DNA of 57,385 nucleotides from Nanobdellota archaeon (GTDB lineage Archaea; Nanobdellota; Nanobdellia; SCGC-AAA011-G17; GW2011-AR17): positions 1 to 57,385 of the forward strand of contig DUKS01000012.1 of assembly GCA_013329215.1 (NCBI GenBank). The letters are read 5' to 3'. The notes under the pieces are model-generated. The model ran no database searches, was not told the origin of the DNA, and saw only the letters and a program-made list of their open reading frames with translations. Positions 1-18,130 of this stretch are shown here, piece by piece (within the stretch, counting starts at the first letter, position 1; every line of letters begins with the position of its first letter). Both the position numbers and the translations under genes were made by a program.

Positions 1-885
1 GTCGGAAGCAGCAGGGCAGTAGTGGGGTACAGGATTAAAAACCTTGAAAAAGATGGGGTTATAGAAAGCTATATCACCGCAATCAACCTTGGAAAGCTCG
101 GCTACACAAGCTACAAGATTTATTTCAAGCTTTTCAACCTCAATGACAGGGCTGAAAAGGAGTTCTATTCCTTCATGAAAGAGGCAAAATGCGTCATACA
201 CTGCCTTAAGACAGAAGGCGCATTTGACTGTTCAATTGTTGTAGCCGTAAGCAGCATAAAGGAGCTTGACGATTTTCTCACAGAATTGAAAAACCAGTTT
301 TCCGCAATAATCAGGGATTACCAGATAAGCCTTGTCGTGATGTCAAGGATATTCAAGCTTAGCAAGATTCTGATTGGAAAGGAATCAAAAGAGCCAAAGG
401 CGGAAAGGTTCTCAGGCAGCAAGGAAGACATGGCTCTTGATGAAAAGGACAAGGCAATACTTCAGGCAATTGCAAACAATGCGAACATGCCAATTGTGGA
501 GATTGCAAATAAAACAAACCTAAGCATTGACATTGTAAAATACAGGATGAGGAAAATGCAGGAGACAGGCATTGTAAACACGTTTAGGGCAATATATGAC
601 ACTTCAAAGCTGGGCTTCCACCATTATGTCATACTGCTGAAAACAAGGAAGATTACAAAAACAGGCGAGGAGATGATAAACAGCTGGGCAAAGATGCACC
701 ATTCTGTCATGTACATCACAAAAAGGATTGGAAACTGGGATTATGAGCTTAATGTTGCATTGGCTTCAATAGATGATTTCAGCGAATTCATAGGAGAGAT
801 GAAAAAGCAGCTTTCGGAGATGCTTGAGTCATACGATACAATAATCAATACGAAGATAATAAAGCTAAATTATTTTCCGCTATGA
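1..885 (+). CDS. Lrp/AsnC-family transcriptional regulator with two tandem HTH+RAM modules; 5' end runs off the window
   Basis: Frame is open from nt 1. First module is partial (..YRIKNLEKDGVIESY..). Second HTH is LDEKDKAILQAIANNANMPIVEIANKTNLSIDIVKYRMRKMQETGIV, followed by a RAM-like segment. Confidence 0.8.
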   Translation, partial: VGSSRAVVGYRIKNLEKDGVIESYITAINLGKLGYTSYKIYFKLFNLNDRAEKEFYSFMKEAKCVIHCLKTEGAFDCSIVVAVSSIKELDDFLTELKNQFSAIIRDYQISLVVMSRIFKLSKILIGKESKEPKAERFSGSKEDMALDEKDKAILQAIANNANMPIVEIANKTNLSIDIVKYRMRKMQETGIVNTFRAIYDTSKLGFHHYVILLKTRKITKTGEEMINSWAKMHHSVMYITKRIGNWDYELNVALASIDDFSEFIGEMKKQLSEMLESYDTIINTKIIKLNYFPL

Positions 886-2021
886 CCGGCTTCTTGTTTA
901 ACAGCATGTTTCTGCCTTGGATTAGGCACGCATTTTCTGCGCGCAGCTTCATACAATCCCTTAAAGGGCAATGGGCTAACATAAGCAAGCGGCTCTGCGC
1001 CTGAAAAAACCCTGTCAAAATCCCTTGCCCTGATACCCATGTTTTCTATTATTCCCCTGCATTCCCGGGCCGCCTTCTTTTCAATCAGCCTTATTGCTTC
1101 CCTTGTATATCCCCACTCATTGCCTATCTCTTCCAGTGTCATCCCATAATAAATCCTGCTGATAAGCACAAGCTTAGACTCTGCCCTATTAAGTTGCCTG
1201 ATTGCATCAAAAATAATGCCTGCTGCCTCAATATCGCCGCACTCCGCCTCGGGCATATGGCGCAAATCAGGAACGGTTTCAGCAAGCGTTGATTCTGTGC
1301 CGGGATTCGGGGGTGTGTCAAGGGAAAGCAGCGTTTTGACCTTGGAAGAGTCTATCGCCACAAACACCTGTTCTTCCAGCAGGCCTGTTGCAGCGCATAT
1401 CTGCCCCATGTGCATCCCAAAGTTGTCGTAATTTATCTCGGGGTTTTTGGCAAAAAACTTCTCTATCGCCTGCAGCTGCCTTTGCCTATTCAGGGGGATA
1501 ACGATCGTATGCCTCTTTTCAATCACCCCCCTTAGAATGTATGCCCTTACCCAGTGCCCTGCATAGGATACAAATTTAACATCGAACGTATAATCAAAAT
1601 CCTCAGCTGCCCTCGTAATGCCTGCGTTGCCATCCTGTATCCTGTCAAGAAGCGAAAGCCCCCTGTATTTTTTTGCAAAAGCAACAACAATCCTGAGGTT
1701 TGCAGTTATAAGCGAATCCTTTAATAGGCGCGCCGCTGTTTTTAAGCGCACAACTTCATCATAAAGCGATTTCAGCTCGTTGCCTTCCCTGCCAAGATAC
1801 GGCTTTCCTGAGGCAACAGCATGCTCAAGACCCGCGCTGAAGTTTTTTATCACAAGCCACCTTGTGCCGGGAACTGCATAGCCTGCTGACCTTATCAGAG
1901 CATCAAACTCATCGTTAATGGGATTAAGCTTCCTGCCTATTTCAGCCTCCTCTTCATGGCTTAAAACAGGATATTGTTCAATCTGCCTCCTGTACACCCT
2001 TTCAATTGCAGCCTCGTCCAT
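870..2021 (-). CDS. Bacterial-type RNA polymerase sigma-70 family factor (regions 1.2, 2, 3, 4 recognisable) with a ~65-aa C-terminal tail
   Basis: Region 1.2-like YRRQIEQYPVLSHEEEAEIGRKL. Region 2: LITANLRIVVAFAKKYRGLSLLDRIQDGNAGITRAAEDFD..KFVSYAGHWVRAYILRGV. Region 4.2 HTH: MTLEEIGNEWGYTREAIRLIEKKA. Confidence 0.85.
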   Translation of the reverse strand: MDEAAIERVYRRQIEQYPVLSHEEEAEIGRKLNPINDEFDALIRSAGYAVPGTRWLVIKNFSAGLEHAVASGKPYLGREGNELKSLYDEVVRLKTAARLLKDSLITANLRIVVAFAKKYRGLSLLDRIQDGNAGITRAAEDFDYTFDVKFVSYAGHWVRAYILRGVIEKRHTIVIPLNRQRQLQAIEKFFAKNPEINYDNFGMHMGQICAATGLLEEQVFVAIDSSKVKTLLSLDTPPNPGTESTLAETVPDLRHMPEAECGDIEAAGIIFDAIRQLNRAESKLVLISRIYYGMTLEEIGNEWGYTREAIRLIEKKAARECRGIIENMGIRARDFDRVFSGAEPLAYVSPLPFKGLYEAARRKCVPNPRQKHAVKQEAGHSGK

Positions 2022-2045
2022 TGTAAATGTGAGTTAAAGCTATGG

Positions 2046-2054
2046 TTTTATAAA
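2046..2054 (-). promoter_or_regulatory. TATA-like box upstream of the sigma-70 gene
   Basis: TTTATAAAA on the minus strand, centred ~29 nt upstream of the ATG at 2021. A near-perfect palindrome AAGAAAGCG-T-CGCTTTCTT (2062-2080) sits just upstream. Confidence 0.45.
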
Positions 2055-2082
2055 GCTTTGCAAGAAAGCGTCGCTTTCTTTA

Positions 2083-2107
2083 GCGCACAAAGCTACGCTT
2101 TGTACGC
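2083..2107 (-). terminator. Hairpin directly downstream of the PAC2-like gene
   Basis: ACAAAGC-TAC-GCTTTGT 7-bp stem extended by 3 further pairs, 10 nt after the stop at 2117. Function as a terminator is inferred only. Confidence 0.3.
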
Positions 2108-2116
2108 TGCAAGAAC

Positions 2117-2863
2117 TCATCCAAAATAGCTCATCTGAGGATTTTTTGCCTTTTCATCAACAGCCATTTCAGGCATAAGCGCCTCGTCCTCTATATTGTC
2201 TATTTCCTCTGCTATCTTGTCAAGGTCTATTTTGAAGCCGTACTTCCTGTTTAATACAGCGAGAATCTCCTTTGCGCCTTTTACGCCCAAATAAACAGGG
2301 TGCGCAAATGTCTGCGCCAATAATACAGCTGAAAGCATGCCTTTTTCCTTTGCAAGTCCTGCCAATAGGCCTGTAACCCCTATTATCGGGCCGACAACGC
2401 CGTAAATCCGTATGTTGCAGTCCGGGAATGATTTGATGTAATTCCTGTTGTTGCCTGACACATACACCTTTGGCTTTCTTGGGATTTTTCCAAGCCCTAT
2501 TCCGCCCATTGTGATTATTTCCTTTACTTTCAGCTCTTTCGCAATGTCCAGAAGCTTATAGCAGAAGTCATAGCACGCTTCCTCATTCACAGGCTGCGCA
2601 TCGCCTGAAACAAGTACGAATTCCTTGTTTTTTACTTTCTTGTAATACAGCCTCACTGACGGCATCTCAAGCAATCCCTGCTCTGTTACAAAAACAGAGT
2701 GCGGAAAGCGGCTTGACTCTATTTCCAACAGTTTCTCAGGCTTCAGGTGGTCTATAAGGAAGTCTATTGCGATTTTCCCCACATTCCCTATGCCCGGAAA
2801 TCCTGAAATCAGGATAGGCGCTTTTGTTTTCGCTTTTTTGAAAGTTTTAATCCTAAACTCCAT
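2117..2863 (-). CDS. PAC2-family proteasome assembly chaperone-like protein
   Basis: N-terminal ILISGFPGIGNVGKIAIDFLIDHL and ~250-aa size fit archaeal PAC2/PbaA-B proteins. Motif-level recognition only. Confidence 0.6.
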   Translation of the reverse strand: MEFRIKTFKKAKTKAPILISGFPGIGNVGKIAIDFLIDHLKPEKLLEIESSRFPHSVFVTEQGLLEMPSVRLYYKKVKNKEFVLVSGDAQPVNEEACYDFCYKLLDIAKELKVKEIITMGGIGLGKIPRKPKVYVSGNNRNYIKSFPDCNIRIYGVVGPIIGVTGLLAGLAKEKGMLSAVLLAQTFAHPVYLGVKGAKEILAVLNRKYGFKIDLDKIAEEIDNIEDEALMPEMAVDEKAKNPQMSYFG

Positions 2864-2904
2864 AACGAAAGAAAATATCAGGCGTGGTTTATAAAGCTGC
2901 TGGA

Positions 2905-3537
2905 TTATGCAAGCGCCCTGTACTTCACGTAAGAATAAACAAGGGTATAAATGGAAACCAGCAGAACAGGCGCCGCCAAAAGCCAGATTGCATAATCCGG
3001 AAACAAAAGCCCTGCAAGCGAAACAACCGCAGCAGCCTTGAACAGCCTTGCCCCAAGCGCGTGAGTCCTGCCCCAGACCTTATCGCTGCTCATTGTCCAT
3101 GGAGTCCTTATGCCGATAAACCAGTTTCTCTTTGCCTTTCCCATCATAACGCCGCAGAAATATATCATGATTGCAAACGCAGGCACCATCATCTGCATCA
3201 TGTTAAAGCGCAAGCCGAGGTTCCAGCCCAGCACAAGCAGGAGCATGTAAAACATGAAAGACACGAGCACTGCTATGAACCATTCAAAATAATTCCTGAA
3301 CTTTTCAATGTTCTTTCTCAGCGGGTCCAGCAATGGAAGCGCAAGAAACAGCAGAAACAGGGCGAGCGAGATTATCGGCATTATAAACAATCCCCAGAAT
3401 GCAGGCATATAGCCGTTGACATTCCCGCCTGCGTCCCAGTGCGATGCAACCTTTTCAGGCATCCATGGATAGAAGTATGCAGCCAGCAGGAAAGACGCTG
3501 TAATAACAGCAAGTGTGAATATACGCGCGTATCGCAT
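2905..3537 (-). CDS. SdpI/DUF1648-like integral membrane protein
   Basis: DUF1648-like YFYPWMPEKVASHWDAGGNVNGY followed by several hydrophobic helices. The ORF extends to 3810, but that part overlaps the GNAT gene and lies upstream of the TATA at ~3581-3590. ATG 3537 (or 3570) is preferred. Confidence 0.6.
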   Translation of the reverse strand: MRYARIFTLAVITASFLLAAYFYPWMPEKVASHWDAGGNVNGYMPAFWGLFIMPIISLALFLLFLALPLLDPLRKNIEKFRNYFEWFIAVLVSFMFYMLLLVLGWNLGLRFNMMQMMVPAFAIMIYFCGVMMGKAKRNWFIGIRTPWTMSSDKVWGRTHALGARLFKAAAVVSLAGLLFPDYAIWLLAAPVLLVSIYTLVYSYVKYRALA

Positions 3538-3610
3538 GCGAAATCTTAGGGCTCTATTCTTAATAACCATTTCGCAAAAGCTTTTATAGGGAGATTCCGT
3601 GGTACAGCAT

Positions 3611-4093
3611 ATGATAAAGATAAGAAAAGCCGGGCTGAAGGACATCCGTGCGCTCGTTGAGATGTGGGAAGAGTTTGAAAAGGAGCATGATGAGATGGTC
3701 TTGAAAAGGGGCCTGTCCTTAAAGGAGCTGCTTAAGAAGAAGCCAAATGCCAGGGCTGTGTACATCAAGTACCTCAAAAAAGCTATTTCAAAAAAAGGAA
3801 TTGTGCTCATTGCAGAGGCGGATAAGAAAGCAATCGGCTATCTTGAAGGCTCAATCAAGAAAAATGACCTGTTTGCCAGAAGGCTGGGCAGCATATGGGA
3901 CCTTTTTGTCAGAAAAGGGTTCAGGAAGCAGGGCATAAGCTCAATGCTGAAAGACCGGGCAATTTTCTTGTTCAGAAAAAAAGGCGTTAAGTTCTCTGAG
4001 ATGTACGTGCATGTTTCCAACACCAATGCCCATCAAATCTACAGGAAGTGGGGATTTTACGATGAAAGCATAAGGATGATGAAAAAGCTATAG
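3611..4093 (+). CDS. GNAT-family N-acetyltransferase
   Basis: Acetyl-CoA binding-like VRKGFRKQGISSMLL..NTNAHQIYRKWGF. ATG 3611 lies ~25 nt downstream of CTTTTATAG (leaderless); an alternative GTG is at 3599. Confidence 0.75.
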   Translation: MIKIRKAGLKDIRALVEMWEEFEKEHDEMVLKRGLSLKELLKKKPNARAVYIKYLKKAISKKGIVLIAEADKKAIGYLEGSIKKNDLFARRLGSIWDLFVRKGFRKQGISSMLKDRAIFLFRKKGVKFSEMYVHVSNTNAHQIYRKWGFYDESIRMMKKL

Positions 4094-4630
4094 ATTCCTG
4101 TAATGCTTCACCAGCTCATTCAGCGTCCACGGCAGGCATTGCCCTTTCCTGATGCCGAGCTTTTCCGCGTGCCTATATATTTTCTTTATTGCTCCCTTGT
4201 CATCTTTTGCCATCACTTCTATTTCCATGAACTCGGGAATGAACTCAAACTCCGCATGGTACTTGTCAAACTCAAACAGCACTCCGGGAAGAGAATAGCT
4301 TACTCTTGTCTTTTTCACGTCCCTCCACTGCTCCAGGCTAAGTGATTCAAGAATTGTTTTCATTGTTTTGAAATCAGACACTTCAAGCTCAAGCTCTTCA
4401 CGTATTTTTATGCCGGGGTTATCAACAGGATTTTTCAATGTAAGGTATGTCTTATTTCCTTTTGTCCGCAGCCTCAATGTTCTTGCCGCATTCCGGATGG
4501 ACTTGTCAGGAAAGTCAAAAGAAACAGCGTGTATCTCACCTTCAAAGTATTTCCTGGCGCCCATCGCAAGCAGCTTTTTCACTACCGCGCCCCTGTCAAC
4601 GCCCAGCACCTTCACCTCTACTTCATGCAT
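4088..4630 (-). CDS. CYTH-domain protein (class IV adenylate cyclase / triphosphate tunnel metalloenzyme family)
   Basis: N-terminal EVEVKV (ExExK), LRLRT, ELELEV and FMEIEV strands typical of the CYTH tunnel fold. Confidence 0.7.
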   Translation of the reverse strand: MHEVEVKVLGVDRGAVVKKLLAMGARKYFEGEIHAVSFDFPDKSIRNAARTLRLRTKGNKTYLTLKNPVDNPGIKIREELELEVSDFKTMKTILESLSLEQWRDVKKTRVSYSLPGVLFEFDKYHAEFEFIPEFMEIEVMAKDDKGAIKKIYRHAEKLGIRKGQCLPWTLNELVKHYRNL

Positions 4631-4683
4631 GATTAAAAATACAGAACAATATGGCAGTTATAAAACTTATGCCTGAGAAATAG

Positions 4684-5304
4684 TTAAGGCCTGCTTATCA
4701 GTATAGCCCTTGCAGGGGCGCTGTCACAGCCTTTTATTCTTAAAGGCAACCCTGCAAATATGTATTCTCCGGGCGGGACTTTGCTTAAGTCAAGGCCCTC
4801 AAACAAAGTCATGCTGCTTAGGATTAAATTGTGCACATTCTGGTTACCTGAATGGAATTTCTGGACAGAAAGCGAATCAATGCCAAGCGTTTTAATTCCT
4901 TTTTTTGCAAGATACCCGGCGCCTTCTTCGCTTAAGTAAATAAAATCAGCATAGAATTGTTTAAACCCGCGCAATGAATTCCTGGTTTTCAGGAGGATTA
5001 TATCCCCCGCGCGAATGTCAAGCGCCTGCAGGTCGGCAGCAAGTATACAAGAGCTGCATGCTGTCAGGTCAAGCACTTTTGCATTGCCATAAAAGGAATC
5101 CAATGGCAGTTTTTCAACAGCATTGCCAGTATTCTCAATGTGCCTTAATGAATCGGCATGCGTGCCTGAATGGCTTCCCATTTTTATTTCAGAAACATTC
5201 GCACCCGAACCGGGTATAGATTTTGCTGTTCTTATTTTTATCTCCGGATTATCAGGGTAGGCAATGGTTTCCCCAGAAAGCTCTAACGAAATGTCATAAA
5301 TCAT
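4684..5304 (-). CDS. Putative cyclase / arylformamidase-family hydrolase
   Basis: HxGTHxDxxxH-type motif SHSGTHADSLRH. ~200-aa size. Confidence 0.65.
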   Translation of the reverse strand: MIYDISLELSGETIAYPDNPEIKIRTAKSIPGSGANVSEIKMGSHSGTHADSLRHIENTGNAVEKLPLDSFYGNAKVLDLTACSSCILAADLQALDIRAGDIILLKTRNSLRGFKQFYADFIYLSEEGAGYLAKKGIKTLGIDSLSVQKFHSGNQNVHNLILSSMTLFEGLDLSKVPPGEYIFAGLPLRIKGCDSAPARAILISRP

Positions 5305-6182
5305 TTCGGCTGCCTGTGCCCCCCAAACTCTTCCCTCAGCGCAGCTATAAGCTTTGACGAAAATGAAGGGGCCTGTAATGACCTTATCCTGGCGTCGTAA
5401 GCAGAAATAATGGAATCAAAATCCACACCCCTCTCACTTGCCTCTTGTATGGCCCAGCCCCCGCTTTCACCGCCGCCGATTTTACCGTTATAAGCAGAAA
5501 GCCTGGCATCCCTTTCAAGGCATCTTGTGATTAACTCCAATACCCATGAGCGTATAACACTGCCGTGTTCCCAGGCTTTGGAAACCTGCGCTAAGTCAAT
5601 CCCGGGCTCTGTTTGCAAAAGCCCGAAGCCTTCTGCATAAGCCTGCAGCATTCCATATTCAATTGCATTATGCACCATCTTCACAAAGTGCCCTGCACCG
5701 CTTTTCCCGATATAATGCACGCCATCTTTTGCAGCCATTGCCATAAACGCAGGCAGGGCAAAATCAAACGCTTCCCTTTCGCCACCGACTGTAAAGCTTG
5801 CCCCGTTTGCGGCTCCTTCCAGGCCGCCGCTCGTACCTGAATCCAGATAGCACAAGCCTTTCGCCCTAAGCTCTTCTGCGCGCCTAACAGAATCCCTGTA
5901 AAAAGAATTGCCCGCGTCTACTATAACATCCCCTTTGCTTAAGTAAGGGGCAATTCCGCCGAGCGTATCATCAACCACGCCGGCCGGCACCATCAGAAAT
6001 ATCAGCCTTCTTGGGGCCAGCTGTGCAACCATATCCGGCAGGGAATCTGCCTTATTTATTCCTGCAATGCTGTTTAATGCTGCACGGTCTGTATCATATC
6101 CAGTCACAGAATTGCCTGCATTAACAAGCTGCGATGCAAGCCTTCCGCCCATCCTCCCCAAACCTGCAATGCCAATTTTCAT
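5301..6182 (-). CDS. 6-phosphogluconate dehydrogenase (decarboxylating)-like, short form
   Basis: N-terminal Rossmann IGIAGLGRMGGRLA. GTSGG..GHFVKMVHNAIEYGMLQAYAEGF is typical of Gnd/YqeC-type enzymes. ATGA overlap with the downstream gene. Confidence 0.75.
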   Translation of the reverse strand: MKIGIAGLGRMGGRLASQLVNAGNSVTGYDTDRAALNSIAGINKADSLPDMVAQLAPRRLIFLMVPAGVVDDTLGGIAPYLSKGDVIVDAGNSFYRDSVRRAEELRAKGLCYLDSGTSGGLEGAANGASFTVGGEREAFDFALPAFMAMAAKDGVHYIGKSGAGHFVKMVHNAIEYGMLQAYAEGFGLLQTEPGIDLAQVSKAWEHGSVIRSWVLELITRCLERDARLSAYNGKIGGGESGGWAIQEASERGVDFDSIISAYDARIRSLQAPSFSSKLIAALREEFGGHRQPK

Positions 6183-6183
6183 C

Positions 6184-7065
6184 TTACTTCAACCTCGAAA
6201 TTGCATAAGCGTACGCACCGATTATGCCTATGTCCTCGCCAAATTTTGTTGCGGTTATCTCAGGCACTGAATTTATGGTATATTGCTTTATTTCGCCATT
6301 AGGAGGGATTATGCTCTTAAACTGCTTTATGCCAAGCGTGCCCATTACGACAATAGCATCTGCAGGGAATGCATTCAGCATATTTCCAATGCCATGCGCA
6401 GTATAGCTTTTTGCAGTTTCAACAATTGCTATAGCCCATTTGCTGCCTTTTTTCGCACTTTCAAACACATCCTGGCAGGAAACAGCCATGCCCTGCTTTT
6501 TTGCCGTTTCCTCAATGCCATAGCCAGAAGCCTGCGCCACCCAGCAGCCCAACCGGCCGCAAGAGCATTTGTTTGCCAAAGAAGGGCTGCGCTCAAGCAT
6601 ATCATGCCCAAATTCCCCGCATGAGCCATGCATGGGCCTTCCATTAATTACAATGCCTGCGCCAATCCCTGTGCTTAATGCAAGAAGATAAAAATTTTCA
6701 GGTCTGTTGCCAAAATAAAGTTCAGCCATCACAGCCATATTCAGGTCATTATCAACAAAAACCGGCTCTTCACCAGCACCCAGCCCCGCCCTAATATCCA
6801 AAGGAGCATTAATGTGAAGAGGAGGGGCAGACTGAAGAATGCCGTTTTTAACCGGCCCCGGAAAGCCCATTGAAACGGCATCTATTTTCTGGTTTGCTTT
6901 GCTCCGCAACTGCTTTGAAACAGATTTAATCTGCTCCAATAGTTTTGATGGGTTCCCCCTTTCACTAGCTACCTGCACTTGGCAGATCATCTCATAAGGA
7001 TTGGCTTTTTTGATTAAGGCGCCTTTTATCTTTGTGCCGCCGATGTCATAGCATTCTATTATCAT
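6184..7065 (-). CDS. ROK-family sugar kinase (glucokinase-like)
   Basis: DIGGTKIKGALI N-terminus. ROK signature LSTGIGAGIVINGRPMHG..GEFGH and zinc motif CSCGRLGC. Confidence 0.8.
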   Translation of the reverse strand: MIIECYDIGGTKIKGALIKKANPYEMICQVQVASERGNPSKLLEQIKSVSKQLRSKANQKIDAVSMGFPGPVKNGILQSAPPLHINAPLDIRAGLGAGEEPVFVDNDLNMAVMAELYFGNRPENFYLLALSTGIGAGIVINGRPMHGSCGEFGHDMLERSPSLANKCSCGRLGCWVAQASGYGIEETAKKQGMAVSCQDVFESAKKGSKWAIAIVETAKSYTAHGIGNMLNAFPADAIVVMGTLGIKQFKSIIPPNGEIKQYTINSVPEITATKFGEDIGIIGAYAYAISRLK

Positions 7066-7085
7066 ATTTGGCCCCGGTAATAATA

Positions 7086-7099
7086 ATGAGGCCGCGAGG
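7086..7099. repeat. 14-nt exact copy of the tRNA-Pro 3' end (second copy at 7179-7192)
   Basis: ATGAGGCCGCGAGG occurs at 7086-7099 and again at 7179-7192, where it covers the tRNA acceptor/T-stem 3' end. Confidence 0.9.
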
Positions 7100-7179
7100 C
7101 ACGTTCGCTCCTGCTCTCTGCCTCACGGCATTCCTTCTTTCTGTGCCTGCAAATTAATGCCTGCACTTCCCCGTTTGTA

Positions 7180-7252
7180 TGAGGCCGCGAGGATTTGAAC
7201 CCCGGTTACAAACACCCCAAGCTTGTGTCCTACCAAGCTAGACTACGGCCCC
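7180..7252 (-). tRNA. tRNA-Pro (anticodon GGG), 73 nt, no encoded CCA, no intron
   Basis: Hand-folded cloverleaf from GGGGCCGTAGTCTAGCTTGGTAGGACACAAGCTTGGGGTGTTTGTAACCGGGGTTCAAATCCTCGCGGCCTCA. 7-bp acceptor; anticodon stem CAAGC/GTTTG; loop TTGGGGT with G37; T-loop TTCAAAT. Confidence 0.9.
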
Positions 7253-7375
7253 GTATTTCTTCCTTCAGCCCATCTGTGGGCTACGAGCATAAGCGAGTAT
7301 GCCCGCAACACGATCAAGCGGAATGCCGCTTGCTACGGCTACAGCCCCATAATGCTTTTTGTTATATGACTCTAT

Positions 7376-7924
7376 TTAAAAAGCTTGCCTCTTCACAATC
7401 AGCGGCACTTTGCCTGTGAAATCAATGACTGTCGAAGGATTGTTTGCAAGCGTCCCGGCATCTATAATAAAATCAGCCTTTTCAGTGACCATGGGCGATA
7501 TCTTTTTAACATCCACGGCGGGTGCAGTGCCTGAAATGTTCACGCTCGCGCAGACCAGAGGCAGCTTTGCCTTTTCAAAAGCTTTCATTACAGGGTGCTC
7601 AAACAGCCTTACTCCTATAGCTGATGAAAAGCCCTTTGCCTCTTTCTTCGGCTTAAGCACATAAGTGAAAGGCCCGGGCAGCTTGTCCAGAAAAGCCTTT
7701 TTTACATTAAAGTTTGCATCAATCCATTTCTTGGAAGGCGCAACAACAGACAAAAGTGCGTCCGGCCTTTTTGCCGCGTTCAGCCTTTCAACAGCTTCCG
7801 GCAAAAGCGCGTTGCACGCAATGCAGTAAACAGTGTCAGTCGGTATGATAACCAAAGCGCCTTTTTTAACCGCTTTAACAACATCCGCCCCGCCTGCATC
7901 CTCAACAGGTAATGTCTTTGCCAT
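7376..7924 (-). CDS. L-threonylcarbamoyladenylate synthase, YrdC/Sua5-type (single YrdC domain)
   Basis: IIPTDTVYCIACNA, PGPFTYVL, VCASVNISG and STVIDFTG match conserved YrdC-domain blocks. Confidence 0.8.
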   Translation of the reverse strand: MAKTLPVEDAGGADVVKAVKKGALVIIPTDTVYCIACNALLPEAVERLNAAKRPDALLSVVAPSKKWIDANFNVKKAFLDKLPGPFTYVLKPKKEAKGFSSAIGVRLFEHPVMKAFEKAKLPLVCASVNISGTAPAVDVKKISPMVTEKADFIIDAGTLANNPSTVIDFTGKVPLIVKRQAF

Positions 7925-7965
7925 AGGTATAGAGTTTATAAGAGTGTATATATAAAGATTACTTC

Positions 7966-8700
7966 TTACAGCGCCTGGAGCTTTTTAACAGTGCCGAAAT
8001 CAAGCGTTTCGCCGTTTCCGCCTGCAACAAGTACTTCAAAACCCGAGATATCTGAAAGGAACGGGCTGAGCAGTTCCTCTTTCAGAACGTCAGAGCCTTC
8101 AACAGCCATGTTAAATGATGGCATGACGATAATGCCTTTCCCATTCCATTTTCCCTTAAGGAAGCACTTGAACTTCTCTGCCCTGCTTCCCTCCCTTAGG
8201 CTGACAGCAGGATGCTCGTGCCCTATCATTATTGTTTTAGCTTTAGCCAGAGCTTCTTTCTTTGGTATCTTGTCGCCGTGGCACACAAGAATATCATTTA
8301 CAAGCTCATAATCCTTTACAGCAATATCTCTCTTGTTTGCAATCGGCCCCAAAATAGTATCGTGGTTACCCCTGACTAAAATAATGTTCCCGCATTTTTC
8401 CAGAAGAAAATCAAGAACTCCAAGCGTGTTCCGCCATTCTGTTTCTGATATTGTGCCGAACTCGTGCTTTAAGTCGCCATTGATTATTATCTTTTCCACT
8501 TCAAGCTTTTCCGTTTCAAGCATCCTAAACAGCTTTTCAAGCCTTGCGATAGTGTCCCTGTACTGCATTCTCGGCACCAAAACCCCCTGCTTGTTGACAG
8601 CTTCCTCATAGCCCATGTGCACATCAGAGATTACAAGTGTTTTATCAAAGTATAATGCAAGATCGATTGCAAATATTCCTTTAAAGATTTCAAATGCCAT
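7966..8700 (-). CDS. Calcineurin-like metallophosphoesterase (archaeal ICC/MJ0037-like)
   Basis: Motifs ISDVHMG, INGDLKHEFG, VRGNHD, GHEHP. Confidence 0.75.
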   Translation of the reverse strand: MAFEIFKGIFAIDLALYFDKTLVISDVHMGYEEAVNKQGVLVPRMQYRDTIARLEKLFRMLETEKLEVEKIIINGDLKHEFGTISETEWRNTLGVLDFLLEKCGNIILVRGNHDTILGPIANKRDIAVKDYELVNDILVCHGDKIPKKEALAKAKTIMIGHEHPAVSLREGSRAEKFKCFLKGKWNGKGIIVMPSFNMAVEGSDVLKEELLSPFLSDISGFEVLVAGGNGETLDFGTVKKLQAL

Positions 8701-9052
8701 TCGTTATTCTCCGTATATAGTTCGCCAGCCCCTCTATCTGCCTCAGTTCTGTCTTGAACAATAGCAGCCTCAGCCTGTCATTTATCCTAACGCCTTTCTG
8801 CTGCAGCTCGTGCTTCACATTATGGTAAAGCTTTTTTCCTTCCTCATCCAGGTCAGTGAGTATTATAGCCTCTTTTGCCGTTATTGATTCAACAAGCCTG
8901 TAAAGAGGCTTGCCATTCAGGATGATTATATTGGAAACACCGAGCTCTTCAAGAGCCTTTTTGTCATTGCTTCCTTCGACTATTACAAGCGTGTTGTTCT
9001 CTTTGATTGTTTCAATCTCTTTCAATACATCTTCAATAACCTGCATGTCCAT
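8690..9052 (-). CDS. Small Toprim-domain protein
   Basis: VIVEGSNDKKALEELG ... ILTDLDEEGKKL (Toprim E and DxD motifs). 11-nt overlap with the phosphoesterase gene. Confidence 0.7.
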   Translation of the reverse strand: MDMQVIEDVLKEIETIKENNTLVIVEGSNDKKALEELGVSNIIILNGKPLYRLVESITAKEAIILTDLDEEGKKLYHNVKHELQQKGVRINDRLRLLLFKTELRQIEGLANYIRRITNGI

Positions 9053-9089
9053 AACAGGCTAAAGCAAATAAAGCGTTAAAAATCTATCG

Positions 9090-9740
9090 CTATACTGAAT
9101 CCAGTGTACGTGCCCCATCATAACGCTCAGAGTCCCTGAAAAGCATATTCACCCTCGAGCCGCTGTCTTCAAAAGAAACATCAACCGGGTATATCATGAA
9201 TGACCAGAAGCAGGTGCCCCATCTCTGGAAATACCTTTCATCCGGCTGGAACAGGTATATGCGTCTTTTTCCTTCAAATTTCCCAAAGCCGGCCCTTGCT
9301 TTTTCAATCACATTCCTGAAATCAAAACCCGCGCCTGAATCCTTTACGCTTGCAACAATCCCTGTTTCTCCCTCAAATGCCATAAATTGGACAGGCAATT
9401 CAGGATTTTCCCTGTTGCCATGGTAAAACGCATTCTCCAAAGCCATTGCTATCGGGCTCATGTCAGGAGATGCCTCTGCCAGTACGGCATTCTCTCCCCT
9501 TCTTGCGCGGATGCGGTCCATTACTCTTAGGTCTCCATTATAATGCTTGCTTACAATAGCCCATAATCGCCGCCCTAAGCCAACTTCTTGAGGAGACGGC
9601 ACATGGTCATATTTTACAGGCGGAGCAAATTCCTTGGGGCATCTCGGGTCCATTGCAGGCACTATTACATCATATCTCAGAGTATTCGTTACATGAATCT
9701 CCCTAAGCATGTCCTCAAGCGTCTTGTCCACGAATGCCAT
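9090..9740 (-). CDS. Hypothetical protein with a possible GHKL (histidine-kinase-like ATPase) fold, RsbW/SpoIIAB-like C-terminal half
   Basis: N-box-like ALENAFYHGN. G1-like VKDSGAGFDF. Distal WGTCFWSFMIYPVDVSFEDSGSRVNMLF resembles the G2/C-terminal strands of anti-sigma serine kinases. Pattern-level only. Confidence 0.35.
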   Translation of the reverse strand: MAFVDKTLEDMLREIHVTNTLRYDVIVPAMDPRCPKEFAPPVKYDHVPSPQEVGLGRRLWAIVSKHYNGDLRVMDRIRARRGENAVLAEASPDMSPIAMALENAFYHGNRENPELPVQFMAFEGETGIVASVKDSGAGFDFRNVIEKARAGFGKFEGKRRIYLFQPDERYFQRWGTCFWSFMIYPVDVSFEDSGSRVNMLFRDSERYDGARTLDSV

Positions 9741-9882
9741 TTGTTCCCCTCAAATTATTACCTTTTATCCCCCATATTTAAAGTTTCTGATAGAAAAATC
9801 GTTTAAAAAGGCAGGCAGGCAGGCAGTTAATCGCCGAACAATGCCATAAATTATATAAACAAGCCAGAAGGATAGAATACAA

Positions 9883-11100
9883 ATGCAAAAGCGGTTATTA
9901 TTCGGTATAATGCTTGCTGTAATAATGCTTGCGGGCATTGCAATGGCAGAAGAGCAGTGCTCTGCATCTGAAGAGGCGTGCGCTGCAGCACCGCCTAGCG
10001 GATACTCTGAAACAGGGAGCAGCCTGTTTACGCCAGCTTCAGGCGATGCAATCTGCATAATATACTTCTACGGCGACGGGTGCCCGAACTGCGCAAAGCT
10101 TCACCCTTATATCGAGGAAGTAAAGGCAAAGTACGGGGGCAAGATAGCTGTCTACGAATATGAGATATACCACAATGTAAAGAATTACCAGATGTACAGC
10201 AGCTACTGCGGGATACAGGAAATACCGCTTGAAAAAAGGGGGGTCCCGTTCCTTGCGGTAGGCAATGCATATTACATGGGAGTCACGCAGATACAAACAA
10301 ATCTTGAGCCGAAGATAAAAGAGATGCTGGAATCAGGCGAAAGAATCTGCCCTCTTCCTGAAGCTGGCGTGTGCGGCGATGTAAAGCCGGGGACTGACTC
10401 AAACACGGCAATAAAGGATTTCAAGGAAAAGATTTCATGGGGCGTTGTCGTAACAGCAGGCCTGGTTGACGGAATAAACCCGTGCGCGTTTGCGGTGCTG
10501 ATATTCCTTTTGACATTCCTGCTTGAAGTTTCAAACAGCAGGAGAAGGATGCTGAAGATAGGGCTTGTGTACACAGGCGCTGTGTATGTTTCATACTTCC
10601 TTGCAGGGCTGGGCATATTGAGCGTAATACAGGTAAGCGGATTCGCAGGCTGGATTGTAAAAGCGGCTGCTGCTGTCGCAATATTTGCAGGGCTCGTGAA
10701 CATAAAGGATTATTTCTGGTACGGAAAAGGGTTTACGCTTGCGATACCTGAATCAAAGAGGGGATTGATTGAGAAATGGACAAAAAGGGCAAACATCCCG
10801 GCTGCGGTTGTGCTGGGATTCCTTGTCTCAATGTTTGAGCTGCCGTGCACAGGCGGCGTGTACCTTGCAATACTTGCAATGCTCGGCAATTCAGTGACAA
10901 CTGCGCAGGCAGTCATCTATCTGCTTGTCTACAATGTGCTGTTTGTCCTTCCGCTGCTGGCCATCACAGGGCTTGTGGTGCTTGGTATGAAGGCAGAGCA
11001 CCTTGAGAAGTGGAGAACCTCAAGGAGAAACCTGATGAAGCTGGGGCTTGGATTGCTGCTTCTGCTATTGGGAATAGCAATGCTGATGGGGTGGATATGA
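9883..11100 (+). CDS. Secreted thioredoxin-like domain fused to a CcdA/DsbD-type thiol-disulfide transporter membrane domain
   Basis: Signal peptide. CPNC in IYFYGDGCPNCAKL. DsbD-family motifs GINPCAFAVLIFLL and ELPCTGGVYLAIL within ~6 TM helices. Confidence 0.75.
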   Translation: MQKRLLFGIMLAVIMLAGIAMAEEQCSASEEACAAAPPSGYSETGSSLFTPASGDAICIIYFYGDGCPNCAKLHPYIEEVKAKYGGKIAVYEYEIYHNVKNYQMYSSYCGIQEIPLEKRGVPFLAVGNAYYMGVTQIQTNLEPKIKEMLESGERICPLPEAGVCGDVKPGTDSNTAIKDFKEKISWGVVVTAGLVDGINPCAFAVLIFLLTFLLEVSNSRRRMLKIGLVYTGAVYVSYFLAGLGILSVIQVSGFAGWIVKAAAAVAIFAGLVNIKDYFWYGKGFTLAIPESKRGLIEKWTKRANIPAAVVLGFLVSMFELPCTGGVYLAILAMLGNSVTTAQAVIYLLVYNVLFVLPLLAITGLVVLGMKAEHLEKWRTSRRNLMKLGLGLLLLLLGIAMLMGWI

Positions 11101-11110
11101 AGGAGAAAAG

Positions 11111-11305
11111 ATGGCAAAATACGAAATTATTGTGCACGAAGGATGCATTGGGTGCGGCAACTGCGAGGCTGTTTGCCCGAAATCATTCAAGCTGAAGGAC
11201 TGCGTATCACACCCTGTTAAAAGGCTTGTTGAAAAACTGGCATGCGAGAAAGAGGCTGAAGAACAGTGCCCTGTGCAGGTTATTGAAGTGAAGGAAGCCA
11301 AATAA
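11111..11305 (+). CDS. Small 4Fe-4S ferredoxin
   Basis: CIGCGNCEAVCP plus distal CP (EEQCPVQ). 64 aa. Confidence 0.75.
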   Translation: MAKYEIIVHEGCIGCGNCEAVCPKSFKLKDCVSHPVKRLVEKLACEKEAEEQCPVQVIEVKEAK

Positions 11306-11314
11306 GGTGAATGA

Positions 11315-11731
11315 ATGAAATATATAACTGCAATCGTGCTCATGGCAGTGCTTGTCCTTGCATACGGTTGCGCGCAAAAAGCAATACCGGAAAGCCAATA
11401 TCCGGCTGCTGATGAAAAAGCTGAAAACATTCTCCAGGGCATCAGCAAAGAAGACTATGCGATGCTGAGCAGGGACCTGTCAGAAACATTAAAGCAAAGC
11501 ACGGATGCGGAATATTTCAGCAGGCTAAGCAAATTCATAAAAGAAAACAGCGGGGAATATGTTTCAAAATCGCTTGCCGCAAGCAAGGATGAAAACAGCA
11601 TGCACACGCGGGGCTATGACTGCCAGTTCAGCATGGAATCAGTGTACTTCACAATCACGTTCAATGCAGATTACAGCAAAGTGGAAGGCATATACTTTGA
11701 TTCTGAAAACATGAGGAAGGCGCTTGAATAA
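11315..11731 (+). CDS. Hypothetical lipoprotein
   Basis: Signal plus lipobox-like LAYGC at the N-terminus. No recognised domain. Confidence 0.45.
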   Translation: MKYITAIVLMAVLVLAYGCAQKAIPESQYPAADEKAENILQGISKEDYAMLSRDLSETLKQSTDAEYFSRLSKFIKENSGEYVSKSLAASKDENSMHTRGYDCQFSMESVYFTITFNADYSKVEGIYFDSENMRKALE

Positions 11732-11999
11732 AATGGAACGGCTCGGCACAAGATATTTCATCATAACTGGAATGAGCATTGCATTCATAATAACTGCAGT
11801 GACAGGGCTGATAAAATTCCCAGGGCTTGTTGAGCTGCTCGGGCTGAGGCGGGTAAGCTTTCCGCTCGGCTACATAAGCACAATACATGACTGGTCAAGC
11901 ATTGCGCTGATAGCATTTATAATAGCGCATGTAATACTGAACTTCAGGTGGTTTGTTTGCGCTACAAAGATGATTTTTGAAAAAGAGGAAAAAAGATGA
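11724..11999 (+). CDS. DUF4405-like small membrane protein (MsrQ/cytochrome-b-like helper)
   Basis: Two TM helices with conserved-looking His (STIHDW, IIAHVILNFRWF). Overlaps both neighbours. Confidence 0.45.
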   Translation: MNKMERLGTRYFIITGMSIAFIITAVTGLIKFPGLVELLGLRRVSFPLGYISTIHDWSSIALIAFIIAHVILNFRWFVCATKMIFEKEEKR

Positions 12000-12616
12000 A
12001 AGCAGCCGCGATTATCATAATAATAGCATTGGTATTGGGAGGATGTGCAATGAAACCGAAAAGCCTTGGAGCAGTTGAAGTAAGGGATTATCAGGGAGAG
12101 AAGCTTGACTCTGCTTTTTCTTTGAGGGAAAACTCAATAAAAGGGCCGCAGCACATAGACATAGAGAACTATACGCTGAAAGTGGGCGGCCTTGTTGAAG
12201 CGCCAAAAGAGTATTCATATGATGAGGTTTTGAAGCATAAGGCTTACACCAAAGTCATAAGGCTGTACTGCGTTGAAGGGTGGGACGCAAACCTTTTGTG
12301 GGAAGGCGTGCTGCTAAGCGGCCTTATTGATGAAGCAAAGGCAAAGAAAGAGGCAAACACAGTGATATTCCATGCATATGACGGATACACAAGCTCTTTG
12401 CCGCTTGACTACATAAAGAGCAGGAACATATTGCTTGCATACAAGGTAAACAACATAACGCTTCCAGACGAGCGCGGGTTTCCGTTTGAAGTCATTGCAG
12501 AGGACAAGCTGGGCTACAAATGGGTAAGGTGGGTCACTGAAATAGAGCTTTCAGACAACCCGGATTACAAAGGCACGTGGGAATCAAAAGGGTACAGCAA
12601 TAAAGCTGACGTATAA
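11996..12616 (+). CDS. Molybdopterin-dependent oxidoreductase-fold protein (sulfite oxidase/MsrP-like catalytic domain)
   Basis: LYCVEGWDANLLWEGVLL, HAYDGYTSSLPLDY, LAYKVNN..LPDERGFPFEVIAEDKLGYKWVRWV are typical of the Oxidored_molyb fold. Confidence 0.65.
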   Translation: MKAAAIIIIIALVLGGCAMKPKSLGAVEVRDYQGEKLDSAFSLRENSIKGPQHIDIENYTLKVGGLVEAPKEYSYDEVLKHKAYTKVIRLYCVEGWDANLLWEGVLLSGLIDEAKAKKEANTVIFHAYDGYTSSLPLDYIKSRNILLAYKVNNITLPDERGFPFEVIAEDKLGYKWVRWVTEIELSDNPDYKGTWESKGYSNKADV

Positions 12617-12893: not shown

Positions 12894-13756
12894 AACCCGA
12901 ATGGCTGACGATAAGGCCGCCTAAAAAGCCGCTCGATGAAATGAAAGGCATATTGAAAAGCAGGAAGCTGCATACTGTGTGCGAGGAAAGCCACTGCCCG
13001 AACATGCCTGTTTGCTGGGACAATAAGACAGCAACTTTCCTGATAATGGGAAACACATGCACTAGGCACTGCAGGTTCTGCGCTGTAAAATCCGGAAAGC
13101 CAAAGCCGCTTAACATGAATGAGCCTGAAGGCATTGCAAAAGCTGCAAAAGAAATGGGGCTGGAATACGCAGTTATCACTTCTGTTGACAGGGACGACCT
13201 TCCTGACAAAGGAGCCGCGCATTTTGCCGAATGCATAAGAATGCTGAAGAAAGGAGGCATTGCAGTTGAAGCGCTGATCCCGGACTATGGGGAAAATGAG
13301 CTCAGGAAAGTTGCCAGCGCATGCCCGGATATGATAGCGCATAACCTTGAGGTTGTTGAGCGGCTGCAGGGCAGTGTAAGGGACAAAAGGGCGGGCTATC
13401 AAGAATCTTTAAATACACTAAAGTGCATTAAAAGGCTGTGCAGCAGCCAGTGCACAAAATCATCGCTGATGCTCGGCATTGGCGAAACAAAAAAAGAGGT
13501 TATAGAAGCAATGGAAGAACTGGGAAAAGCAGGAGTTGGCCTTGTAACGCTTGGGCAGTACCTTGCGCCCGGAAAGAGCTTCCCGAAAGTTGAAAGGTAT
13601 GTGACGCCTGAAGAATTTGCCGAATACAAAAGAGAAGGGGAGCGCATGGGCCTTGCTGTTGAGTCAGGGCCTTTCGTGAGAAGCTCGTTCAATGCAAAAG
13701 GCATGTGGCTGCAAAGCAAAAATAGAGAAGATGCTAGAGGTAAAAAATGCCTTTGA
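12890..13756 (+). CDS. lipA: Lipoyl synthase
   Basis: CEESHCPNMPVC auxiliary cluster motif and radical-SAM CTRHCRFCAV. ATGA overlap with the upstream gene; an alternative ATG is at 12875. Confidence 0.9.
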   Translation: MKPEWLTIRPPKKPLDEMKGILKSRKLHTVCEESHCPNMPVCWDNKTATFLIMGNTCTRHCRFCAVKSGKPKPLNMNEPEGIAKAAKEMGLEYAVITSVDRDDLPDKGAAHFAECIRMLKKGGIAVEALIPDYGENELRKVASACPDMIAHNLEVVERLQGSVRDKRAGYQESLNTLKCIKRLCSSQCTKSSLMLGIGETKKEVIEAMEELGKAGVGLVTLGQYLAPGKSFPKVERYVTPEEFAEYKREGERMGLAVESGPFVRSSFNAKGMWLQSKNREDARGKKCL

Positions 13757-14808
13757 CAAAAATCGCCGAGTTTGATGTAAAAAAGCTTGAGATTCTGTCT
13801 CCAGAAGGAAAAGCAGATGAGAAGCTGATGCCGCGGCTTTCAAAAAAAGACATTGCTGAAATGTACAGGCTGATGGTTTTGTCAAGGGCTTTTGACGAAA
13901 AGGCAATAGCCCTTCAAAGGCAGGGCAGGCTTGGGACTTATGTGCCCCAGCTCGGGCAGGAAGCTTCTATAATAGGCCCTGCATACGCGCTTTCAAAGAA
14001 AGACTGGCTTGTCCCGTCATTCAGGGAAACAGGCGCCATGATTGCCCACGGATGCAGCGTTGAAATGATGATGAGGTACTGGGCCGGCGATGAAAGAGGC
14101 TCGCTAATGCCAAAAGGGGCAAGAGTGCTTCCTGTTGCAATACCTGTATCAACGCAGCTTCCGCATGCGGCCGGGATTGCATGGGGCATGAAAAAGCTGA
14201 AAGAAAGGTCGGCAGTAATGGCTTACTTTGGAGACGGCGGGACATCGCCCGGGGATTTTCACGAGGCAATGAACCTTGCAGGAGTTTTCAGGCTTCCTGT
14301 TGTTTTTGTCTGCCAGAACAACCATTATGCAATATCACTGCCTGTAGAGAGGCAGACTGCGTCAAAGACAATTGCGCAGAAGGCAATAGGATACGGCATT
14401 CAGGGCGTGCAGGTTGACGGAAATGACATATTCGCCGCATACTCGGCGGCAAAAAAAGCGCTTGAAGACGCAAAAAACGGCATTCCGACGCTGATAGAAT
14501 GCTTAACTTACAGGATGGGGGACCATACAACTTCTGATGATTCAAAACGGTACAGGGATGAAAAAGAAGTGAAGGAATGGGCAAAAAAAGACCCTGTTGC
14601 AAGGCTTGAAAAATACATGGCAGACCGAAAAATGCTTAATGCGGCATTAAAGGAAAAGATAATCAAAAAATGCAGGGCAATAATAGAGAAGGCGGTTGGG
14701 GATGTTGAATCAAGCCCGCCTGACGCTGAAGACATCTTCAGGTATACATACGCGGAAATGGATGAAAGCCTTAAAGAGCAGGCTGAAGGATTCAGGAGGC
14801 GGGTGTAA
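13747..14808 (+). CDS. 2-oxoacid (pyruvate/branched-chain) dehydrogenase E1 alpha subunit, TPP-dependent
   Basis: YFGDGGTSPGDFHEAMNLAGVFRLPVVFVCQNNHYAIS TPP-binding block. YRMGDHTTSDD. Confidence 0.85.
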   Translation: MPLTKIAEFDVKKLEILSPEGKADEKLMPRLSKKDIAEMYRLMVLSRAFDEKAIALQRQGRLGTYVPQLGQEASIIGPAYALSKKDWLVPSFRETGAMIAHGCSVEMMMRYWAGDERGSLMPKGARVLPVAIPVSTQLPHAAGIAWGMKKLKERSAVMAYFGDGGTSPGDFHEAMNLAGVFRLPVVFVCQNNHYAISLPVERQTASKTIAQKAIGYGIQGVQVDGNDIFAAYSAAKKALEDAKNGIPTLIECLTYRMGDHTTSDDSKRYRDEKEVKEWAKKDPVARLEKYMADRKMLNAALKEKIIKKCRAIIEKAVGDVESSPPDAEDIFRYTYAEMDESLKEQAEGFRRRV

Positions 14809-14809
14809 T

Positions 14810-16815: not shown

Positions 16816-16816
16816 T

Positions 16817-17548: not shown

Positions 17549-18130
17549 ATGTATGAGACAAAACCGTTGAAATTTGACCCAAAGTCGCTTAAGGGCATAT
17601 CTGAAAAACAGATTACCCTGCACCATGACAAGCATTATGCAGCATATGTTGCGGCAAGGAACAAAATTGAGGAAAAGCTTGCAAACGGAGAGCTGGACTG
17701 CATAAGGGAGCTTAAGAAAAATGAAAGCCACAACGCGTCGGGCCAGGTTCTGCATGAGATATATTTTGCCAACCTCGGGGGAAATGGCGGGGTGCCGGAA
17801 AAGCCGCTTATGGACATGATAAGCCGGTGCTTCGGGAGCTTTGAAAACTGGAAAAAGGAATTCACGGCATGCACAACTGCCGCAAGAGGATGGGTTTTGC
17901 TTTGCTATGACTGGACAGACGGAAAGCTGCACAACTATGCTGTTGACTTCCATGATGAGGGCGCTGTCTGGAACGCCGCGCCTGTAATGGCCCTTGACCT
18001 GTGGGAGCACGCATATTACCTTGATTACGGCCCTGACAAGGCAAAGTATATAGAGGCGTTTTTTGCAAACCTCGACTGGAAAGATGTAGGGGAAAGGCTT
18101 AAAAAATATGCAAGGGAGGCAAAAAAATGA
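17549..18130 (+). CDS. sod: Fe/Mn superoxide dismutase
   Basis: LHHDKHYAAYV and DLWEHAYYLDY metal-ligand motifs. Confidence 0.9.
   Translation: MYETKPLKFDPKSLKGISEKQITLHHDKHYAAYVAARNKIEEKLANGELDCIRELKKNESHNASGQVLHEIYFANLGGNGGVPEKPLMDMISRCFGSFENWKKEFTACTTAARGWVLLCYDWTDGKLHNYAVDFHDEGAVWNAAPVMALDLWEHAYYLDYGPDKAKYIEAFFANLDWKDVGERLKKYAREAKK

Follow-up and report, generated by a model that had tools for sequence, protein, structure and literature searches.

The stretch of DNA analyzed here (the window) comprises 57,385 nucleotides (nt), positions 1–57,385 of contig DUKS01000012.1 from a Nanobdellota archaeon, and all coordinates below refer to it. Close to its start lies the subject of this study, a gene encoding a sigma-70-family factor, which occupies positions 870–2021 on the reverse strand (ATG at 2021–2019, stop codon at 872–870) and consists of an intact open reading frame (ORF) of 383 codons. 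Upstream of it on the same strand, 95 nt from its start codon, is a gene of the PAC2 proteasome-assembly-chaperone family (2117–2863; Pfam PAC2, 133.6 bits). On its other side, a gene for a tandem helix-turn-helix (HTH)-Lrp/AsnC regulator (1–885, forward strand; Pfam HTH_24 and AsnC_trans_reg) runs toward the sigma gene; the start of the window cuts this gene, which encodes 320 amino acids in the full 63,385-bp JGI contig Ga0103681_1000122 (L005). An earlier note on this DNA had described a full-length, well-preserved sigma factor in an otherwise archaeal gene context, lying behind an archaeal-style TATA box. We find that the gene is real and that it occupies a 1.2-kb cassette carried only by this species-level population.

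Profile searches, structure prediction and fold comparison agreed on the identity of the protein. Sigma70_r2 (PF04542) matched residues 104–164 with 31.4 bits against a Pfam gathering score of 24, Sigma70_r4 (PF04545) matched residues 274–322 with 32.8 bits against 24.1, and the NCBIfam sigma-70 superfamily model TIGR02937 scored 68.8 against a cutoff of 42.9. Among the more specific NCBIfam models, the RpoD/SigA, SigB and RpoS types scored best, above RpoH and SigB/F/G. The protein fell far under every cutoff of the RpoD, RpoS, RpoH and MzaA equivalog models, including three RpoD equivalog hidden Markov models (HMMs): TIGR02393 (103 against 354), NF004208 (102 against 555) and TIGR02997 (110 against 384.5). 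When phmmer was run against PDB chains, Thermus SigA aligned to residues 8–322 with E = 2e-26, and residues 370–600 of Escherichia coli RpoD aligned to residues 95–323. Together with the intact ORF, in which the sigma motifs quoted in the earlier note are all present, these matches and the structural results below establish that the gene encodes a genuine sigma-70-family protein.

The domains follow one another along the reverse strand in the order known from bacterial sigma factors of groups 1 and 2, such as Thermus SigA, E. coli RpoD and RpoS, and mycobacterial SigB. Region 1.2 (residues 8–31, 1929–2000) was delimited with Pfam Sigma70_r1_2 and by alignment to region 1.2 of Thermus SigA; its Pfam score of 16.9 bits lies slightly under the cutoff of 22. 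The core of sigma domain 2, with regions 2.1–2.4, spans residues 104–164 (1530–1712; Sigma70_r2). It is followed by a region 3-like segment of three helices (residues 177–229, 1335–1493), which was placed by SigA alignment and modeled helices. No Pfam match to Sigma70_r3 was found in the protein, and the segment lies within the continuous SigA alignment. A region 3.2-like linker (residues 230–257, 1251–1334) contains SLDTP, aligned to the SLETP linker of SigA. Sigma domain 4 (residues 258–327, 1041–1250; Sigma70_r4) includes the 4.2 helix-turn-helix TLEEIGNEWGYTREAIRLIEKKA, and the protein ends in a C-terminal tail (residues 328–383, 870–1040), which was defined by comparison with the ends of homologues and has predicted local distance difference test (pLDDT) scores of 45–79.

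An AlphaFold2 model built on 118 homologues had a mean pLDDT of 84.3, with values of 94–98 in sigma domain 2, approximately 89–95 in the region 3-like helices (residues 177–192, 201–212 and 216–229) and 80–90 in sigma domain 4. It thus supports both domains 2 and 4, on which the earlier note had made its identification depend. Regions 1.2 and 3, for which Pfam gave a score just below the cutoff and no match, respectively, both aligned with SigA and were modeled as confident helices. The 3.2 linker was modeled as a low-pLDDT loop, as is expected for a sigma finger without polymerase. In Foldseek searches, the best matches were full-length Thermus SigA chains, and E. coli, cyanobacterial and mycobacterial sigmas from initiation complexes were also recovered; matches to the Thermus and E. 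coli sigma chains covered approximately 350 columns with probability 1.00 and E = 1e-10.

The architecture appears group-2-like, with region 1.2, a helical insert, sigma-2, sigma-3 and sigma-4 but no region 1.1: only seven residues precede region 1.2, compared with a median of 82 in homologues. At the other end, the protein extends approximately 45 residues beyond the median end of its homologues, so that the last 16 nt of the gene (870–885) are shared with the convergent Lrp gene. The description "full-length" accordingly holds for regions 1.2, 2, 3-like and 4, but not for region 1.1, and it does not cover the extra tail. Although bacterial group 1 and 2 sigmas are the best matches of the protein in both sequence and fold, it differs from them in its archaeal host, the lack of region 1.1, the lack of a Pfam region 3 match, the tail of approximately 45 extra residues, substitutions at near-invariant positions, a two-residue deletion and the wide margin by which it misses the equivalog cutoffs.

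To describe the substitutions we use E. coli residue numbers according to our own mapping, whose offsets (+275 and +277) are consistent with the phmmer PDB chain ranges. Conservation was scored over the 62 columns conserved at 85% or more in the 118 homologues, and the rarity of single residues was counted among 268 homologues. The sigma protein holds 40 of the 62 conserved columns (65%), whereas none of the 118 homologues falls under 77% and their median is 96%. By this measure it is the most divergent member of its neighborhood, and the term "well-preserved" was an overstatement.

The losses and retentions are not spread evenly. In region 2.2, D126, Q129 and N132 (equivalent to D403, Q406 and N409) are kept, and E407 is replaced by D130; the protein also keeps its hydrophobic framework and F427, Y430, W434, R436 and R441, and region 4.2 keeps the equivalents of R584, E585 and R588. 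By contrast, the residues with which group 1 sigmas read the -10 and -35 elements, W433, Q437, T440, R586 and Q589, are not conserved and are replaced by H, A, L, A and L. In sigma-70, W433 belongs to the tryptophan wedge that borders the bubble on its upstream side, Q437 and T440 read position -12, H455 and E458 read the extended -10 element, and R584, E585, R586, R588 and Q589 read the -35 hexamer. Several of the changes fall at positions that hardly vary in the closest homologues and are rare: the same residue occurs in 1 of the 268 homologues for W433H and for Q437A, in none for R451V, in 3 for R586A, in 4 for Q589L, and in 2 each for L404R and L412I. Others are more common (T440L, 35 of 268; H455N, 33; R448H, 9), while the residue of E458R is outside the six commonest at its position. 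L404, L412 and R451 are invariant in the 118 homologues, and all three are substituted here. The region 2.2 helix also carries M413T, and a deletion of two residues after Y119 (Y394 in E. coli) is shared with 2 of the 268 homologues. Judged from these residues, the polymerase-binding helix appears largely intact and the promoter-reading surface rewritten. Thus, of the core-binding and -10 recognition residues that the earlier note had singled out for checking, those of region 2.2 are mostly kept, but several of those that read the -10 element are replaced.

The archaeal origin of the surrounding DNA is not in question. Apart from the PAC2 gene, the window holds an archaeal signal recognition particle (SRP) RNA (49060–49328), the replication factor C (RFC) small subunit (with an intein), the RFC large subunit and diphthine synthase; of the archaeal markers named previously, only trmY was not recovered in any Pfam scan run. 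The nearest named relatives of PAC2 and diphthine synthase belong to metagenome-assembled genomes (MAGs) labeled 'Candidatus Nanoarchaeia', 'Nanoarchaeota' and 'Candidatus Woesearchaeota', and the host is therefore a DPANN archaeon of the Nanoarchaeia/Woesearchaeota type.

We also checked the contig for chimerism. The PAC2-sigma-Lrp junction was seen directly in three assemblies, namely the 63-kb JGI contig and ENA contigs of 6.4 and 2.8 kb from the independent assemblies ERZ5996431 and ERZ909572, the latter from groundwater, and two more contigs (57.6 and 18 kb) encode the same sigma protein. Ga0103681_1000122 differs from the window at 5 positions in 12 kb (window 1–12021), which makes it a near-identical population variant. 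Base composition gives no sign of a foreign fragment: the GC content of the sigma gene is 0.476, compared with 0.462 ± 0.028, its GC content at third codon positions (GC3) is typical of the contig, and its synonymous-codon fit ranked 24th of 48. Chimerism and mis-binning are thus excluded for practical purposes.

The sequence upstream of the sigma gene contains a putative archaeal promoter. A BRE-like (TFB-recognition element-like) AAAGC (2055–2059) and the TATA box TTTATAAAA (2046–2054), which together span 2046–2059 on the reverse strand, form the arrangement AAAGC-TTTATAAAA-CC, in which the TATA box begins 33 nt before the ATG. The same box at -29 to -34 precedes the PAC2, Sua5 and CYTH genes and the genes at 53541–54146 and 21807–22505, and a slightly varied box precedes dph5 and the gene at 19826–20551. 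More generally, an (A)AAGC-TTTATAWA-CC box lies 29–34 nt before many start codons in the window, for example in 2864–2900, 7925–7960, 4631–4670 and 54147–54180. A promoter box at this distance implies mostly leaderless mRNAs. The predicted promoter of the sigma gene corresponds to the BRE/TATA consensus of this genome at the standard leaderless distance, and its mRNA is likewise predicted to be leaderless. No sigma-70-type promoter was matched in the PAC2-sigma spacer, and window-wide counts of such promoters were no higher than in shuffled sequence.

Two adjacent palindromes (2062–2108) separate the PAC2 stop codon from the sigma promoter; the earlier note had seen a palindrome just upstream of the TATA box. 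The first (2062–2080) has 9-nt arms and a 1-nt gap, and the second (2082–2108) has 12-nt arms and a 3-nt loop; as RNA they form two tandem hairpins with a fold z of -3.9. AAAGC-N3-GCTTT occurs three times in the window, twice in this spacer, with 0.43 occurrences expected window-wide. In the palindromes, the AAAGC half of this motif resembles the BRE-like AAAGC in the promoter consensus. The palindromes could represent a 3′-end structure or terminator of PAC2, an operator for a regulator, or both.

Comparison with related genomes delimited the sigma locus precisely. PAC2 relatives with 73–77% identity were found on long contigs, and we compared their loci (L018, L019 and L020) with that of the window. 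The order in the window is CYTH, GNAT, SdpI, PAC2, sigma, Lrp, PPAT/CoaE. L020 has the same neighborhood (85% identity for Lrp, 93% for MJ0043_C, 79% for CYTH and 76% for PAC2) and no sigma gene; between PAC2 and Lrp it carries an unrelated ORF of 335 amino acids on the opposite strand. In L018 and L019 the sigma gene is also absent and PAC2 directly abuts MJ0043_C. No sigma homologue was found within 7 kb in any of the three loci. In blastn comparison of L005 with L020, DNA homology ends 10 nt past the PAC2 stop codon and restarts at the 3′ end of Lrp, with breakpoints at 2106 and 882. Together with its promoter and the hairpins, the sigma gene thus forms a cassette of 1.2 kb (882–2106) that fits exactly between the stop codons of the PAC2 and Lrp/AsnC genes and is carried only by this species-level population. 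The slot after PAC2 varies in content: it holds the sigma cassette here and the ORF of 335 amino acids, which is membrane-anchored, in L020 (3217–4256), and it is empty in L018 and L019 (approximately 7740–7760).

A search for relatives of the sigma protein covered a word index of 5.8 billion clusters, an exhaustive phmmer scan of 1.84 billion representatives, GTDB genomes, IMG/VR and GenBank phages. Nothing between 99% and approximately 35% identity was found among some 15 billion proteins. The word-indexed search returned only the protein's own 90% cluster, and phmmer found only this cluster below E = 1e-31; the next phmmer matches scored approximately 125 bits or less with 28–48% identity. 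The top matches P0121, P0122, P0123, P0125 and P0126 are mis-assembled, and a duplicated region 2 inflates their scores. GTDB genomes, IMG/VR and GenBank phages contained no closer relative, and no archaeal relative was present among the matches inspected (P0035, P0064, P0122, P0127, P0129, P0121 and P0005), in which the informative contexts were all bacterial. By these searches the sigma gene appears to be an orphan.

Sigma-70 genes in DPANN genomes have been published before. Castelle et al. described such genes (fam00359) as 'particularly prevalent in Woesearchaeota', ruled out mis-binning through the phylogeny of co-encoded proteins, reported the presence of TBP, TFB and TFE, found no anti-sigma factors and called the role of the DPANN sigma genes unclear (Castelle et al., 2021; PMC8204110). 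Our gene resembles fam00359 in its DPANN host, in being a bacterial-type sigma-70 gene on a verified archaeal contig and in having no anti-sigma factor nearby, and it is probably one more case of the genes already reported. It differs in that the published family is prevalent, whereas this gene is confined to one population and has no relative above approximately 35% identity. The existence of the published family makes the gene less surprising than first assumed.

Two other kinds of sigma factor were considered for comparison. MzaA, from the MZA anti-phage system, was the top name given by both NCBIfam and PADLOC, through the shared sigma-2 to sigma-4 part. We rejected MzaA itself, since the protein reached 113.7 bits where the cutoff is 800, the match was confined to the C-terminal third of the model (positions 457–702 of 726) and the N-terminal region of MzaA is absent; the MZA system was rejected because no other Mza genes lie nearby, the neighbors being PAC2 and Lrp/AsnC. 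Phage sigmas of PHROG 351 matched residues 82–327 by profile (E = 1.4e-36) and are likewise comparable as a small, mobile, cassette-like gene, but the best GenBank phage sigmas have 28–34% identity, no closer than bacterial sigmas. Prophage or viral origin was rejected given that there are no viral neighbors, that IMG/VR holds no relative and that no viral homologue is closer.

The remainder of the contig contains several features outside the sigma locus. Metabolic modules of bacterial appearance span 13747–17533 and 19826–21810 on the forward strand and 5301–7065 on the reverse strand; genes of this kind on the contig are those for 2-oxoacid dehydrogenase E1 alpha, E1 beta and E2 with a lipoate-protein ligase, LUD/CCG lactate-utilization genes, and a ROK kinase with a 6-phosphogluconate-dehydrogenase-like gene. 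An oxidative-stress set comprises an Fe/Mn superoxide dismutase (17549–18130), a rubredoxin-domain FMN reductase (36487–37269) and a rubrerythrin (37594–38172), all on the forward strand. The intein of the RFC small-subunit gene (26408–28717, forward strand) corresponds to residues 122–529 (Pfam Intein_splicing) and separates the N-terminal AAA+ part from the remainder of the protein. A protein of 832 amino acids (22580–25078, forward strand) has a peptidase C25 (gingipain-like) domain. A nucleotidyltransferase gene (DUF6932/Polbeta), HEPN-domain genes and a gene for a YhcG PDDEXK nuclease, at 48000–48578 (reverse strand), 52953–53537 (forward) and 56313–57359 (forward), are of kinds typical of toxin-antitoxin or defense islands. 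Approximately 20 ORFs in the window had no Pfam match at the thresholds used.

We next weighed what the sigma gene may be doing in this archaeon. Our preferred reading is that it is an acquired sigma gene, that it would be transcribed by the archaeal TBP/TFB machinery, and that its product would bind specific DNA sequences and thereby regulate a few host genes, using the sigma-4 helix-turn-helix and possibly sigma-2, and would not serve a bacterial polymerase as a promoter-specificity subunit in the canonical manner. Because the gene has an archaeal promoter and the codon usage of its host, its source would probably be archaeal, either a different genome or a mobile element, and not a bacterium directly, or else the cassette may have resided in this genome for a long time. 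The earlier suggestion of a recent transfer gains weight from a species-specific cassette that is missing from syntenic relatives, but the native promoter and typical codons speak against a fresh arrival directly from a bacterium. A role as a DNA-binding regulator would be the simplest, since the lineage has no known bacterial polymerase and the protein has no autoinhibitory region 1.1. When sigma-70 is truncated at its N terminus so that region 1.1 is lost, the ability of the free protein to bind DNA is unmasked, and the absence of this region here would help free DNA binding. We hold the statements on identity and origin with high confidence. Repurposing as a DNA-binding regulator, one of the possibilities raised in the earlier note, is the role that we favor by inference, but we regard this mechanism as possible and on balance doubtful. 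As a whole, the reading is a tentative one to which we would give slightly less than even weight.

Several points weigh against the preferred reading. Both expression and DNA binding are predictions from the sequence. Stand-alone DNA binding does not explain the retained core-binding residues of region 2.2 or the sigma-finger-like linker, which would sit better with a protein that still binds a polymerase of some kind. The nearest syntenic relatives lack the gene, so it is dispensable for the lineage. No orthologues were found from which purifying selection in the archaeon might be measured. fam00359 was compared through its published description, so that closer kinship to it than to bacterial sigmas is at best presumptive. 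Finally, the known variation is of one kind. Four sigma variants are known, all in one 90% cluster, and they differ at only three sites, G/E323, N/T327 and H/R372 (window 1054, 1042 and 907), each of which is non-synonymous. Two of these (327 and 372) are inside the C-terminal tail, and 323 is just upstream of it. All four haplotype combinations are present, which suggests recombination or recurrent change. Residues 1–322 are identical in four of four variants, though overall diversity is too low for significance, and three variable sites in the gene are too few to support a selection test based on the ratio of non-synonymous to synonymous substitution rates (dN/dS).

The main rival to a regulator is a gene without function, picked up recently in a variable slot, transcribed only because the cassette brought a promoter, and destined to decay. 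Its confinement to one species-level population and its absence from syntenic relatives would be expected of such a passenger, as would a sequence with 65% of the conserved columns when the 118 others have at least 77%, polymorphisms that are non-synonymous at all three sites, and a C-terminal extension of approximately 45 residues resembling read-through up to the neighboring gene. Moreover, DPANN archaea have no known polymerase partner or anti-sigma factor (PMC8204110). On the other hand, the ORF of 383 codons is intact, all sigma domains are modeled with confidence, structural residues and those of region 2.2 are kept, a consensus host promoter stands at the standard spacing, codon usage is fully typical, and residues 1–322 do not vary, with the above reservation about diversity. 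We consider a neutral passenger unlikely, if a serious competitor. An assembly or binning artefact, in which a bacterial fragment was joined to archaeal DNA, can be set aside with near certainty: nothing was found in its favor, and it is effectively refuted by identical junctions in independent assemblies from different samples, by archaeal genes 95 nt away on one side and overlapping on the other, and by the typical GC, GC3 and codon usage and the archaeal promoter.

Three further explanations involve a polymerase or the promoters that it uses. The protein may be a true sigma factor for a bacterial-type RNA polymerase, either that of a bacterial host or partner cell to which it would be delivered or one encoded elsewhere, for example by a mobile element or a virus. 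An apparently complete set of sigma domains, with region 1.2 and the sigma-finger-like 3.2 linker among them, is consistent with this, as are the core-binding D403, Q406 and N409, the conservative change of E407 to D, and the -35-reading R584, E585 and R588; alternative sigmas also vary at the positions that read the -10 and -35 elements. We nevertheless judge it improbable. The known hosts of DPANN cells are archaea, scans for polymerase and partner genes covering the 63-kb contig found no bacterial polymerase gene, there is no evident signal peptide or secretion-linked neighbor, and three substitutions (L404R, L412I and R451V) fall where the 118 homologues show no variation. In addition, the transcription machinery reported in these genomes is all archaeal, and no anti-sigma factors are reported (PMC8204110). 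The data examined lend no support to the earlier proposal that the protein acts on the polymerase of a bacterial partner. Equally improbable in our view is docking on the archaeal RNA polymerase, where region 2.2 would bind the clamp coiled-coil that normally holds TFE and Spt5, an element shared by every multisubunit polymerase, and from there would tune initiation at some promoters. The archaeal factors themselves are discussed elsewhere (PMC7289017). Such docking would give the best account of the retention of region 2.2 in a lineage with no known bacterial polymerase, and it would agree with the native promoter ahead of the gene. It is, however, entirely inferential; L404R and M413T alter the helix that would bind the coiled-coil, and the gene is dispensable in sister genomes. 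There is also no known precedent for a sigma factor docking on an archaeal polymerase. Slightly less probable still is a hybrid initiation or regulatory factor, a bacterial sigma scaffold re-tuned to the archaeal clamp coiled-coil or to TBP/TFB-bound promoters so as to redirect transcription in the DPANN cell. The new DNA-reading residues and the polymorphic tail, as a partner-binding module, would then be part of the re-tuning. If true, this would be the first sigma-type factor acting on an archaeal or eukaryotic-type polymerase.

What this locus adds to the published DPANN sigma-70 genes is a cassette with exact boundaries, the orphan status of the gene, the rewritten promoter-reading residues and a consensus host promoter. 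The literature searched contained no functional study of DPANN sigma genes, and to our knowledge none of them has been studied experimentally. Because it is known from one population only and lacks orthologues, the gene may be a passenger that the archaeon can do without, and as a model it is weaker than the sigma families conserved across Woesearchaeota. It is nonetheless a clean natural example, with a 1.2-kb cassette, a predicted native leaderless archaeal promoter and a polymerase-binding motif that is kept, and it provides a usable candidate for pull-down and DNA-binding experiments. Bacteria initiate transcription with sigma factors, whereas archaea and eukaryotes do so with TBP and TFB/TFIIB. 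An archaeon that retains and expresses a sigma gene would put the interchangeability of these two initiation systems to the test.

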